A stretch of 64,000 nucleotides of DNA, taken from Chlamydiota bacterium (lineage in GTDB: Bacteria; Chlamydiota; Chlamydiia; Chlamydiales; JAAKFQ01). Shown in pieces: positions 14,337 through 57,579 of this stretch; the first letter of the stretch is position 1, and each line of letters opens with the position of its first letter. Position numbers and translations under genes: made by a program. The stretch is from contig JAAKFQ010000002.1 in NCBI GenBank assembly GCA_011064725.1, positions 2,662 through 66,661 on the forward strand, written 5' to 3'. The notes under the pieces are model-generated. The model was given only the letters and a program-made list of their open reading frames with translations, was not told where the DNA came from and did not search any database.

Positions 14337-14495
14337 CTGGCACTGCGCAATAAATTCTACTCATGGGAAGGCTGCAAGGAATAATCTACTTTGTATGACT
14401 CTTTGTCTAACTCTTACTGAGTTGGACAAAGAGTCATACTTTGTATCTCATCCCTTTCGCCCTTCCTCTAAATAGAATTTATTACGTAGTGCCAG
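14337..14495. mobile_element. family A 159-bp MITE-like nested palindrome, copy A1
   Basis: TIRs CTGGCACTGCGCAATAAATTCTA / TAGAATTTATTACGTAGTGCCAG. Conserved core GGAAGGCTGCAAGGAATAATCT ... central hairpin ... CCTTTCGCCCTTCC. Same length and core as the copies at 41743, 57255 and 57391. Confidence 0.75.
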
Positions 14496-14729
14496 TTAAT
14501 CACCGGTGGGTGATTTAAAAAATATGTATACTGATGTTTTAAGCGTCAGTAGAAAAATGGAGGAATATGACAGAGTCTAAAGATTCAACCGATACATCAT
14601 TCTGGCCGACACATCGACCAAGATTGCGCTCAGCAGAAGGATGGGACCGTAAAGTAAAAATTAGAAAACGTCTTTCAAAAGAAAACGTCAAAGAAAAAGA
14701 GCTAGAAAAGGTTCCGGTGCGTAGAATTA

Positions 14730-14940
14730 ATACCAATGGTAACAATTAAATGTATAAATTGGATTCAAGATTTTCAACCTGAATAAAGTTTGGAAATCGC
14801 AGCTAACCACTAGGGGGCTGCTTAACCAGCCCCTTCAGATGGTTAGCAAGATTGAAAACGAGATCGTGCTGACGCTTAGGCGTCAGTCCTAATTGAAAAG
14901 ATGAAGATGAATTTGTACAGTTAATTTTTACTATTGGTAT
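14730..14940 (+). repeat. family B nested-palindrome repeat, copy B1
   Basis: Ends ATACCAATGG ... CTATTGGTAT. Internal hairpin modules are GCTAACCAC..GGGGCTGCTTAACCAGCCCC..ATGGTTAGC and CTGACGCTTAGGCGTCAG. Flanked by TAA/TAA. Ends 8 nt before ATG 14949. Confidence 0.75.
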
Positions 14941-14948
14941 AAACTATC

Positions 14949-15362
14949 ATGATGGAAATTCAGGCAACCTATCTACATGACATGCGCATCGAATGTATCC
15001 GCCTGGATACAAAGGAGCGTATTTATACAGATGGGCCTCAAAGTATTCAAGGGCTCGATGAATATTTTTCACCAACAGATCTGTGTGTGCTCAGTTTAGC
15101 AACCTGTGTGCTAACAATGATGGGATTGAAAGCCAAAAAGCTTGGAGCCGATTTCAAAAAGACGCTTGTGAAAATGCAAAAAGAGATGACAAAAGATTTT
15201 AAGCGCATCGGCTTTATTGAACTGGAAATTTTTTGTCCTAATGAATTTTCAGAAGAAGAACAAAAAGCTCTGGAAGATGCAGCCTATACGTGCCCTGTGC
15301 ACCATAGCTTGCATCCAGAAATTCGTATCAATATAGAATTTTATTGGGGCGTACATGGCTGA
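14949..15362 (+). CDS. OsmC/Ohr family peroxiredoxin-like protein
   Basis: 137 aa with the two OsmC-type Cys contexts (SPTDLCVLSLATCV and YTCPVHH). Overlaps the next gene by 8 nt. Confidence 0.7.
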   Translation: MMEIQATYLHDMRIECIRLDTKERIYTDGPQSIQGLDEYFSPTDLCVLSLATCVLTMMGLKAKKLGADFKKTLVKMQKEMTKDFKRIGFIELEIFCPNEFSEEEQKALEDAAYTCPVHHSLHPEIRINIEFYWGVHG

Positions 15363-16065
15363 TATTATTATTCAAGCAAGAGTGGGCTCAGAGCGTTTGA
15401 AAAATAAGCTTTTATTAAAAATCAAAGATCAGACGCTGTTAGACATTTTAATCAACCGATTAAAAAGGTGTAAAAAAGTAGAGCGTCTTATTCTTGCCAT
15501 CCCTGATACAAAAGAAAATGATGTCTTAGAAAAGGCATGTAAAAAGCATGGCATCGATTGCTTTAGAGAAGATGAAAAGAATGTCTTAAAACGGTTTTAT
15601 TTGGCTGCCCAGCATTTTAGTAGTGAAATTATTGTACGCATCACATCAGACTGTCCTTTGATGGATCCAGAACTTGTCGATGTGATGATCGAAACTTTTG
15701 AAAAAAGCACGTGCGATTATGTCACAACAAATCAAAAACGCTGTTTGCCAAGAGGATTTGATGTAGAGGTTTTTTCATTTAAAGCACTTGAAAAAGCATT
15801 TTTTATGACACAAGACCCTGTGCATTTAGAACACGTCACGCTTTTTTTTAAAACATCTGAGGAATTTTCAACAAGAGTGGTTCAACATCCTTTTGTCAAT
15901 GCACATTTCAGGTTGACGCTTGATACAAAAGAAGATTTTGCGCTCTTAAAAATCCTTTTAGAAGAGTTAGATCCTGCATTTTCTATGCTTGATGTGTTTG
16001 ATTTTTTAGAAAAAAATCCCCATATTGCTATACTTAATAAACACATCAAACAAAAGCTGGTATAG
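15355..16065 (+). CDS. cytidylyltransferase (CTP_transf_3; SpsF / acylneuraminate cytidylyltransferase-like)
   Basis: N-terminal IIIQARVGSERLKNK (AR-x-GS-x-RL-x-K motif), ITSDCPLMDP and RGFDVEVF. Confidence 0.8.
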   Translation: MADIIIQARVGSERLKNKLLLKIKDQTLLDILINRLKRCKKVERLILAIPDTKENDVLEKACKKHGIDCFREDEKNVLKRFYLAAQHFSSEIIVRITSDCPLMDPELVDVMIETFEKSTCDYVTTNQKRCLPRGFDVEVFSFKALEKAFFMTQDPVHLEHVTLFFKTSEEFSTRVVQHPFVNAHFRLTLDTKEDFALLKILLEELDPAFSMLDVFDFLEKNPHIAILNKHIKQKLV

Positions 16066-55607: not shown

Positions 55608-55690
55608 AGCTCCTGCATCATGCAAAAATTTCAAATGCTACGAGGGAGGATTTTTAAAATCCCCATTGAAAATTGCATGATGCAGGAGCT
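55608..55690. terminator. long inverted repeat, probable bidirectional terminator between yacG and the recombinase gene
   Basis: 17-bp perfect arms AGCTCCTGCATCATGCA (55608-55624) and TGCATGATGCAGGAGCT (55674-55690), flanked by A-run and T-run. The loop contains its own small hairpin, GGGAGGATTTTTAAAATCCCC. Confidence 0.65.
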
Positions 55691-55692
55691 TT

Positions 55693-56550
55693 TTAGGGTC
55701 TTGGGTGGAACTGGTCAAATCGATGCATGAGTTTTTGTGATGACACATGCGTATATTTATCTGTTGTTGCAATATTTGTGTGCCCCAACAGCTCTTGAAT
55801 GATGCGTAAATCTGCTCCTCGATCAAGCAAGTGCGTTGCAAAAGAATGTCGAAATGTGTGTGGCGAGATGATTTTTTGAATATCCGCTTTTTTGACATAG
55901 TCTTTAATGAGTTTCCATAAAAAGTGTCTATCTAAAGGTTTGCTTTTTTTATTGACAAACAGATAAAGGCTTTTGTCTTGGCGTTTGTTGAGATAGTGAT
56001 CAATTTGATAAAGCGCTTTTTTGTGAATGGGCACAATGCGCTCTTTATTCCCTTTTCCTATCACTTTGATAAATGTATCAGACACGTTTTCTAATTTTAA
56101 TTGCACAACCTCAGAAGCCCTCAGGCCGCAGGCGTACATGAGTTCTAAAATGGCTAAATCGCGTGCGCCTATAATTTCTTCAGAGTTGGGTGCGTCCAAG
56201 ATTTTTTCCACCTCCTCTTCCGTGAGTATCTGAGGAATGGTGCTCCAAAGTTTGGGGCTTTCAATACCTTTTGCAAGCAATTTAGGCACCTTTTTCTCTT
56301 TTTTTAAAAAGCGAAAAAAGACCTTGATGGAGGCCAACTGTCGCATTAAAGTAGACGGCGCTTTACCTTCCATTTTTTGCTGAGACAAAAATGCGACAAT
56401 ATCTTCATCGTCGGCACTTTCTAAAGCAATCTGTTGCGTTTTAAAAAAAGCAAAGAGCTTTTCACAATCTCTTCTGTAGGCTTCCACCGTATGCATGGAA
56501 AATCCCTTCTCAATTGACAAATAGACCAAAAAGCTATCTAAATATTCCAT
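55693..56550 (-). CDS. tyrosine site-specific recombinase, XerC/XerD family
   Basis: N-terminal SAM-like core-binding domain (FLVYLSIEKGFSMHTVEAYRRD). Catalytic region with ACGLRASEV, HTFRHSFATHLL, LLGHTNIATTDKYTHV. Confidence 0.85.
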   Translation of the reverse strand: MEYLDSFLVYLSIEKGFSMHTVEAYRRDCEKLFAFFKTQQIALESADDEDIVAFLSQQKMEGKAPSTLMRQLASIKVFFRFLKKEKKVPKLLAKGIESPKLWSTIPQILTEEEVEKILDAPNSEEIIGARDLAILELMYACGLRASEVVQLKLENVSDTFIKVIGKGNKERIVPIHKKALYQIDHYLNKRQDKSLYLFVNKKSKPLDRHFLWKLIKDYVKKADIQKIISPHTFRHSFATHLLDRGADLRIIQELLGHTNIATTDKYTHVSSQKLMHRFDQFHPRP

Positions 56551-56584
56551 AGCATGATGTTAAAGGATTTGGTATTATCATAAA

Positions 56585-57286
56585 ATGCGTATCTTAATTT
56601 ATTGTGATGAAGGGGTCGATGCTTTTTCATTTAGGCAAACCTACAAAACGCTAAAAAAAATACTCAAAGCACATTTTGTAGTAGTGAAATCTCATACACT
56701 GCTTGAATATTTAGACAAAGCAGATCTTTTTGTGATGCCAGGTGGACGTGATGTTTTCTATCACAGAGCTCTTCAGGGTAAAAAAACAGATGCCCTTAGG
56801 GAATTTGTAGAAAACGGAGGCAGCTATTTGGGCCTTTGTGCAGGTGCGTATTTTGGATCTAAATCCATTGAGTTTGAAAAAGGACATGTTCATGAAGTGA
56901 TCGAGCAAAGAGAATTGGCCTTTTTTCCAGGCAAAGCTATTGGACCTGCATTGGGTTTGGGAAAATATGAACCGACAAGTTGCAGGGGAGCTGAATGTGC
57001 CCTCATTGATACAAGAATGGGCTCGTTTGGAACGTATTACAATGGAGGGTGCTATTTTGAGGGTTCTTTTTCAAACGCCAAGCCTCTAGCGTATTTTGCT
57101 AAAACAGGAAACGTCGCCATTGTTGAGTGCTCCGTGGGCAAAGGCAAAGCGCTTTTATCTGGCGTGCATCTTGAATATAGCGTAAAAAATCTTACAGAAA
57201 AGCAGCTTGCACACGCTGATATTGAGGTTTTGAAACGAGATGAAGCACTAAGAACTGACTTTACGCACTACCTTCTGTCTATATGA
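56585..57286 (+). CDS. class I glutamine-amidotransferase-like / BPL_N-domain protein
   Basis: MRILIYCDEG..., DLFVMPGGRD and ENGGSYLGLCAGAYF fit the biotin-protein-ligase N-terminal-like (GATase1-fold) domain. The last 11 codons lie inside the left end of MITE copy A3. Confidence 0.6.
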   Translation: MRILIYCDEGVDAFSFRQTYKTLKKILKAHFVVVKSHTLLEYLDKADLFVMPGGRDVFYHRALQGKKTDALREFVENGGSYLGLCAGAYFGSKSIEFEKGHVHEVIEQRELAFFPGKAIGPALGLGKYEPTSCRGAECALIDTRMGSFGTYYNGGCYFEGSFSNAKPLAYFAKTGNVAIVECSVGKGKALLSGVHLEYSVKNLTEKQLAHADIEVLKRDEALRTDFTHYLLSI

Positions 57287-57579
57287 GGGCTGCAAAAAAC
57301 AATCTACGGCGTCTTGCTTCTCATTCAACTTTCATAGAGTTGAATTTCTTAAGCTACCTTGTATCTTGTTCCTTTCGCTCCTCTTATAAACTGATGTTAC
57401 GCGATAAATCCAACTCATAGGAAGGCTGCAGAAGATAATCTGCTTCGTCTTATTCTTCGTCCAACTCTTCAAGAGTTGGACCTCATCACAGTCCTTGCAT
57501 CTTATCCTCTTCGCTCTTCCCCTAAATTGGATTTATCGCGTAACATCAGTTATAAACAGAACTTACTGCGTAACATCAG
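57255..57579. mobile_element. family A MITE-like element, copy A3, interrupted by nested copy A4
   Basis: Left TIR CTGACTTTACGCAC and right TIR GCGTAACATCAG. After removing A4 and one TTATAAA copy, 159 bp remain. Flanking direct repeats are CTAAGAA (57248-57254) and TTAAGAA (57580-57586). Confidence 0.75.
57391..57549. mobile_element. family A 159-bp MITE-like element, copy A4 (nested in A3)
   Basis: TIRs CTGATGTTACGCGATAAATCC / GGATTTATCGCGTAACATCAG. Flanked by a perfect 7-bp direct repeat TTATAAA (57384-57390 and 57550-57556). Confidence 0.8.

Follow-up and report, generated by a model that had tools for sequence, protein, structure and literature searches.

A probable family of 159-bp miniature inverted-repeat transposons with a strand-specific hairpin in chlamydial genomes

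Why does one chlamydial genome carry the same 159-bp palindrome several times over, once inside another copy of itself, and is this repeat a mobile element, a structured RNA or a regulatory site? Chlamydiae are usually described as repeat-poor. The repeat, here called family A, lies in a 64,000-nucleotide stretch of DNA from a Chlamydiota bacterium (GenBank assembly GCA_011064725.1, contig JAAKFQ010000002.1, positions 2,662 to 66,661; the whole stretch is called the window), in which a first-pass annotation had described four copies and likened them to MITEs, the miniature inverted-repeat class of transposable element. Using the definitions of MITEs given in two reviews (PMC10969869 and PMC3184786), we found it very likely that family A is a non-autonomous DNA transposon of this type, about 159 bp long and present in chlamydial genomes, with an additional layer of hairpin structure on one strand.

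The + strand below is the orientation in which the four window copies were given in the first-pass annotation. These copies and the parts of the nested pair are as follows.

14337..14495, + strand: copy c1, 159 bp, between two divergent genes, fabI (13370-14260, minus strand) and one that is OsmC-like
41743..41901, + strand: copy c2, 159 bp, in the convergent spacer between a 180-aa open reading frame (ORF) and an IscA-like gene
57248..57254, unstranded: left flank of c4, CTAAGAA, which matches the right flank at 6/7 positions and is thus a decayed target-site duplication (TSD)
57255..57390, + strand: left part of the outer copy c4, 136 bp, whose 3' end is the target heptamer TTATAAA (57384-57390)
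57391..57549, + strand: inner copy c3, 159 bp, with 23-bp perfect terminal inverted repeats, inserted in c4
57462..57478, unstranded: apical stem-loop of c3, CAACTC-loop-GAGTTG, the most conserved part of family A
57550..57556, unstranded: second copy of the c3 TSD, TTATAAA, identical to 57384-57390 and made at the insertion of c3
57557..57579, + strand: right part of c4, 23 bp, including the right terminal repeat ...TGCGTAACATCAG
57580..57586, unstranded: right flank of c4, TTAAGAA, the partner of 57248-57254

All four copies were found where the first-pass annotation had placed them, each 159 bp long, and the termini, conserved core and flank strings that it quoted were all correct. The interrupted copy c4 spans 325 bp (57255-57579), and removal of c3 together with one TTATAAA leaves exactly 159 bp. 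Pairwise identity among the four copies was 62-87% in a repeat search, and two core patterns matched the window at these four sites only (0.18 and 0.00 matches expected from shuffles). Each copy folds as a single extended hairpin (z-scores from -12.7 to -16.6). The flanks of c2, TTAAAA and TTAAGA, are alike at 5/6 positions, while the TSD of c1 is lost (TTTGTTA and TTAATCA). The TAA stop of the 180-aa ORF (41738-41740) falls within the target of c2, and the last 10 codons and the stop of a 233-aa ORF (56585-57286) come from c4.

The window belongs to a 128-kb scaffold of an ENA metagenome assembly (ERZ23486227 scaffold_209), on which 10 kb were walked off each window end. This walk gave a fifth copy (L084 12988-13150), which ends 7 bp short of window position 1 (7-169 bp to its left). 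The copy stands 15 bp upstream of the start of a MatE gene, which diverges from the first ORF of the window on the other side of the spacer; its TSD is lost. The nested pair c3/c4 was also seen in an independent Logan assembly (L002, run SRR8451930) up to the end of the contig, which falls inside the pair, as a repeat would predict. All five scaffold copies lie on the same strand (5/5, two-sided P = 0.06). We ascribe this to chance, because in the wider set described below the orientation of 71 copies relative to local GC skew was split 40:31, which shows no replication-strand bias.

The family proved to be much larger than the window. Metagenomes were searched with a pattern of the positions invariant in the five copies, ATCT-N21-AACT-N4-10-GAGTTG-N16-TTGNANCT, which was specific in local tests, and 62 loci were recovered. 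A hidden Markov model built from the four window copies was then run with nhmmer over 574 kb, comprising the window, the adjoining scaffold loci (L083 and L084) and the metagenome loci (L086-L147). This search gave 89 non-overlapping copies, at most 4 per locus, of which 71 were full length, so that the possibility left open in the first-pass annotation, that no further copies exist, fell away. Full-length copies measured 153-163 bp, with a mode of 159, and were at most 91% identical in pairs (median 70%). Counts out of 71 given below refer to the full-length copies.

Most of the loci came from the NCBI whole-genome shotgun (WGS) sets SDBV01, SDBU01 and SDBS01, which are Loki's Castle marine-sediment assemblies from the study 'Marine sediments illuminate Chlamydiae diversity and evolution' (bioRxiv 10.1101/577767). 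The low-GC contigs among them carry ordinary bacterial housekeeping genes, including those for PheT, UvrC, GyrB, PBP2 and LolC/E, and these same genes ruled out a giant-virus origin of the SDBV contigs. Since the repeats are all that the low-GC contigs have in common with the window, they belong to related but different organisms. A divergent subfamily has the ends CTCACCTTACGCAAAAAAYACC. The contigs that carry it have 42-50% GC, and one of them shows partial synteny to the window, with a protein identity of 40-45%. The scaffold of the window carries 5 copies in about 84 kb, and the low-GC loci carry one copy per 8.8 kb beyond the copy that recruited each locus. Family A was present in independent assemblies from ENA, Logan, NCBI WGS and JGI. 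The species-representative genomes nearest to the window were Simkaniaceae metagenome-assembled genomes (MAGs), with a GatB identity of only 59%, and no copy was found in four Simkaniaceae/Chlamydiia loci reached through GatB. A scan of GTDB genomes with GGCTGYA..AYAATCT..TTGYATCT..TTCGC gave 0 matches, but this pattern fits only 10/71 of the known copies and so excludes only copy-rich genomes. The IMG/VR scan gave one chance match that nhmmer did not support, and blastn against the plasmids of PLSDB gave no family-A match.

The ends and the target sites of the copies were those of a transposon. Terminal inverted repeats, CTGAYNTTACGCA ... TGCGTAAYNTCAG, were evident from columns at least 90% conserved in the 71 copies, and the conserved termini cover about 13 bp, the left one being CTGAYNTTACGCA and the right one its inverted complement. 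For the TSD test, the last k bases of the left flank were compared with the first k bases of the right flank, and flanks paired across different copies served as the control. In the 7-bp register, perfect repeats were found in 6/71 copies and repeats with at most one mismatch in 20/71, against control values of 0.2 and 2.6. A few copies had 6-bp or 8-bp duplications, giving an overall range of 6-8, and the motif TTNNNAA was visible in both flanks. Clear terminal repeats, a duplication of about 7 bp and the insertion-site consensus TTNNNAA thus emerged from the alignment that the annotation had suggested.

Two nested insertions allowed the empty site to be rebuilt. When c3 and one TTATAAA were removed, the restored site aligned without a gap across the junction to other family-A copies, with 96% identity to L093 8380-8481. 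Another copy (L100:1387-1546) is inserted in a member of a second repeat family, family C, and its flanks minus one TTAAGAA aligned across the junction to intact family-C copies with 88-92% identity. Copy number, terminal inverted repeats, TSDs and nested insertion therefore all bore out the MITE-like reading of the first-pass annotation.

Damaged and rearranged copies were also found. Outside the known copies, a search for the element ends gave only truncated copies, a two-end remnant and one copy with an insert. The 25-bp remnant consists of two element ends alone (L125 842-866, ACTGATGTTACGCAGTAACTTCAGT), one element end is duplicated together with its flank (L086 360-420), and one pair of full copies stands in tandem with a gap of 8 bp (L087 6039-6364). 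One further copy (L094 2126-3005) is split near its position 25 by an insert of about 725 bp that shows no clean duplication; the insert has two ORFs, one of 57 aa that is helix-turn-helix-like and one of 89 aa that is membrane-anchored, and is not a transposase. The truncations, the remnant, the tandem pair and the split copy are the picture of a decaying transposon family.

The position of the copies relative to genes was then considered. The spacers holding them were divergent in 18 cases, convergent in 18 and tandem in 31, and in the tandem spacers 11 copies were sense and 20 antisense to the genes, which was not significant. Many copies touch a stop codon or overlap it, with the same few bases recurring, which fits an AT-rich target that often includes TAA; such a target also explains why c4 takes the place of the 233-aa ORF's tail and why c2 starts 2 bp past a stop. 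Of the first-pass statement that copies are intergenic or at gene 3' ends, the part on gene ends held for many copies, whereas about a quarter lie in divergent, promoter-side spacers. Promoter and terminator scans detected neither a promoter nor a terminator common to the copies, and neither a U-tract nor a consistent terminator call was found in them.

The palindrome is not symmetrical in its folding. The strand complementary to the + orientation, called the well-folding strand, folded better in 71/71 copies (mean -73.1 vs -53.6 kcal/mol), and RNAalifold gave 50 pairs and -48.4 kcal/mol for this strand vs 26 pairs and -7.1 kcal/mol for the other. In the MAFFT alignment of the well-folding strand 95.1% of cells were paired, compared with 84.9% in shuffles and 36-44% in slid controls. 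Double-sided changes occurred in 41/50 pairs, and the observed values were reached by 0/500 shuffles. G:U outnumbered A:C by 359 to 56 (6.4-fold) and was ahead in 40/50 pairs. Between nearest-neighbour copies, changes from Watson-Crick to G:U numbered 249 vs 46 to A:C, and double changes were compensated in 88 cases vs 28 uncompensated. The five apical pairs AACTC/GAGTT were kept in 68-71 of the 71 full-length copies. The apical CAACTC/GAGTTG pairs and the internal motifs GATACAAG and GTAGATTG (well-folding strand) were nearly invariant in sequence, while the subterminal arms covary freely and are less conserved than the internal core and the apical stem-loop.

This pattern points to a constraint on a single strand, as RNA or as single-stranded DNA (ssDNA); given the random orientation of the copies to replication and transcription, a strand-biased mutation process is an unlikely cause. 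The invariance of the apical stem and the internal motifs suggests that they may be recognition sites for a protein or an RNA. The strand-specific structural signal is cleaner than is usually documented for such elements. In two copies part of the structure departs from the rest: segment 14393-14439 of c1 forms a perfect 20-bp stem at a place where the family consensus and most copies have an internal loop, and in L120:7362-7519 the usual internal loop is likewise turned into a perfect complement. Both stems hint at arm-to-arm conversion inside the palindrome, by which one arm is rewritten from the other.

Insertion at AT-rich TTNNNAA-like sites with a duplication of about 7 bp, nesting in other family-A copies and in a second MITE family, decay, and conservation of the hairpin on one strand are all shown by these data. 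A mechanism that would fit them begins with a DDE-type transposase supplied in trans, which would bind the 13-bp ends and make 7-bp staggered cuts. The outside ends of IS10 and IS50 also begin with CTGA, and relatives of IS4, IS1595 and IS982 make duplications of 7-9 bp; these are leads only to the kind of transposase that family A might use. Selection on a single-stranded form would keep the hairpin. This form would most likely be a hairpin in a transcript, where it might be cut by RNase III or structure an mRNA end and so affect RNA processing or stability, by analogy with Correia (RNase III) and ERIC (RNase E) elements; an ssDNA hairpin required for propagation would be a less likely alternative.

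Several observations weigh against a mobile element whose hairpin is under selection. The results agreed with the first-pass annotation that the window has no transposase, and a search by element ends and by long repeats revealed no partner transposase or ORF-bearing element with family-A ends in the window, the scaffold flanks or the 574 kb of loci, so the check proposed in that annotation came back empty. With neither an autonomous element nor a transposase bearing these ends recovered, mobilisation in trans is a proposal. With no pair of copies more than 91% identical (median 70%) and most duplications decayed, there is no sign of very recent activity. For the hairpin, most of the rare variants in paired columns disrupt the pair, with G:U ahead of A:C by only 10:6 among them; the constraint on each inserted copy is thus weak or slow and seems to act over long times or on source copies. 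The covariation counts are of non-independent events, as the copies come from several organisms and are mutually related. Relative to neighbouring genes, the well-folding strand leans, if at all, towards antisense (20:11, not significant), which does not favour a simple role at mRNA ends. It is possible, if rather unlikely, that the hairpin with its invariant apical stem-loop and conserved internal loops is a functional single-stranded module on one strand, beyond a selfish MITE: either an RNA recognised by host or element machinery (RNase III-type processing, or regulation of neighbours or of the transposase) or a single-stranded propagation intermediate. If this were true, selection on one strand would account for the 6-fold excess of G:U and for the compensated changes between diverged chlamydial lineages.

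Four other explanations of family A were weighed against a non-autonomous transposon. One of them overlaps with it and takes family A to be primarily a structured non-coding RNA module, such as an RNase III target, a small RNA or an mRNA stabiliser, for which transposition is only the means of spread. The better fold of one strand in every copy, the paired cells (95%), the covarying pairs (41/50), the 6.4-fold lead of G:U over A:C, and the conservation of the internal core and apical stem-loop above the subterminal arms all agree with such a module. However, it has no match in Rfam at gathering or E-value thresholds, and the best score there was 35 bits, a generic long-hairpin match to a plant miRNA model with a gathering score of 95; in a scan of the whole window only tRNA-Pro and the signal recognition particle (SRP) RNA exceeded the gathering threshold, so that the known structured RNA gene considered in the first-pass annotation did not appear. 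Copies also have no promoter or terminator in common, their orientation to genes is random or slightly antisense, and rare, recent variants break pairs freely. We consider it doubtful that RNA function comes first. An ssDNA hairpin element, either palindrome-associated and derived from IS200/IS605 or of REP type and mobilised by a RAYT, would insert through its folded strand at the replication fork, which would suit a strand-specific hairpin and the common orientation of the 5/5 scaffold copies on the strand with positive GC skew. The IS200/IS605 and REP/RAYT families are not known to make a target duplication. The 7-bp duplications and gapless empty sites of family A largely refute this origin, and true terminal inverted repeats, the 40:31 orientation of the whole set and the lack of a TnpA, TnpB or RAYT gene in the window add to this, so that it is very improbable.

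An element like the Rickettsia palindromic elements (RPEs), which would extend proteins by a peptide segment through in-frame insertion, was brought to mind by the four window copies, in which one frame looked mostly open, and by c4, which supplies the last 10 codons of the 233-aa ORF. Over the full-length copies, however, each frame has on average 1.9-3.8 stops, any given frame is open in at most 8 of the 71, and none of the copies lies within an ORF that continues with substantial coding sequence to either side; we therefore regard such an element as highly unlikely. Finally, family A might be a regulatory palindrome (a terminator or operator, for instance) that does not move and was duplicated together with neighbouring sequence, or might be an artefact of assembly. 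Its intergenic position and strong hairpin would suit a regulatory palindrome, and the invariant central CAACTC/GAGTTG could be a dimer-binding site. The flanks, however, are unrelated between copies, duplications and nested insertions are present, U-tracts and consistent terminator calls are lacking, and the empty-site reconstructions refute it; the same family recurs in the independent ENA, Logan, NCBI WGS and JGI assemblies, contrary to an artefact. Both explanations are extremely improbable.

Two other repeat families with similar features were found in the window, as listed here.

14728-14945, 20486-20647, 38204-38358 and 45699-45941, unstranded: family B, palindromic repeats with the ends TAATACCAATAG... 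/ ...CTATTGGTATTA
60927-61093, unstranded: family C, MITE-like, about 165 bp, with the ends AACCTGAGTTT... / ...AAATTCAGGTT, between gatC and an 815-aa ORF

Family B has a modular interior of variable length, about 150-245 bp. Its copy at 45699-45941 adjoins tRNA-Pro (45943-46020), a relative with 88% identity was found in one metagenome locus (L095), and in the distant relative L146 the two genes flanking the copy at 38204-38358 are adjacent, without the element between them. Intact copies of family C were found in at least 9 metagenome loci, with 75-92% identity, and one of them is the target of the family-A insertion at L100. Among the genes of the window are a chlamydia-type FabI (PRK06300) and GatCAB, which suggest a chlamydial origin. 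The gene for a XerD/XerC-type tyrosine recombinase (55693-56550), 700 bp away from the nested pair, has the score of an ordinary Xer protein (PRK00283, 310 bits vs a cut-off of 279) and shows no sign of a link to family A. Two tandem paralogous genes (51884-53630 and 53668-55311; 540 and 519 aa) gave no family match; their upstream regions are duplicated as well, with a repeat period of about 1741-1746 bp and 73-79% identity. A 742-aa ORF (48142-50370) contains a 21-bp periodic repeat at 48826-48901 (three overlapping 34-nt copies, 74-79% identical), which corresponds to a 7-residue protein repeat.

Neither the 2024 review of prokaryotic MITEs nor a MITE survey of 183,232 genomes mentions Chlamydiota in its main text. 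The scaffold of the window carries at least 3 MITE-like families, and family A, at about one copy per 9-17 kb, is common to chlamydial lineages with an identity of only 40-45% between orthologous proteins, which speaks for an active or long-lived mobilome in environmental chlamydiae. In MAGs, family A can be used to flag assembly breaks and to type strains, and it explains altered gene 3' ends. Its more than 70 diverged copies are a natural data set on why a transposon keeps a strand-specific hairpin.

Among known elements, IS10 and IS50 duplicate 9 bp, compared with 7 bp in family A, and the likeness of the IS4 family (IS10 and IS50), IS1595 and IS982 to family A, in the CTGA start or the duplication of 7-9 bp, is a tentative one. 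Family A differs from REP/BIME elements (moved by RAYT) and from IS200/IS605-derived elements in its duplications, its terminal repeats and its lack of strand bias (40:31). Correia elements duplicate TA. The Correia or NEMIS elements of Neisseria are MITEs of similar size and a plausible model for a transcribed family-A copy, but family A duplicates about 7 bp at TTNNNAA, has no shared promoter and apparently has other end sequences; the likeness proposed in the first-pass annotation therefore does not extend to the duplication. Correia elements are MITEs of 100-200 bp that carry an integration host factor (IHF) site and promoters, and their transcript hairpins are cut by RNase III at the terminal repeats (PMC10969869). 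The ERIC/IRU and YPAL elements of enterobacteria are also imperfect palindromes, of about 127-170 bp. Their effect on mRNA depends on the transcribed strand, with an RNase E site in Yersinia (PMC10969869), and this strand dependence matches the asymmetry of family A; sequence and host are different, and for family A duplications and mobility are directly shown. Rickettsia RPEs resemble family A in length, about 150 bp, in palindromic build and in having an obligate intracellular bacterium as host. Their insertions are in frame and code for a conserved peptide (PMC10969869), whereas family A keeps no frame open and has no copy in frame inside a long ORF, so that this second likeness proposed earlier was superficial.

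The closest agreement was with bacterial MITEs in general, with which family A shares small size, terminal inverted repeats, target-site duplication, lack of coding capacity, many copies, intergenic position, nesting and folding into a long hairpin. It differs from them in its host phylum, Chlamydiota, and in a sequence unrelated to anything searchable. A literature search on chlamydial MITEs and on the end sequences of the element returned nothing relevant, and family A is apparently undescribed for Chlamydiota. It is an ordinary kind of element and opens no new category.

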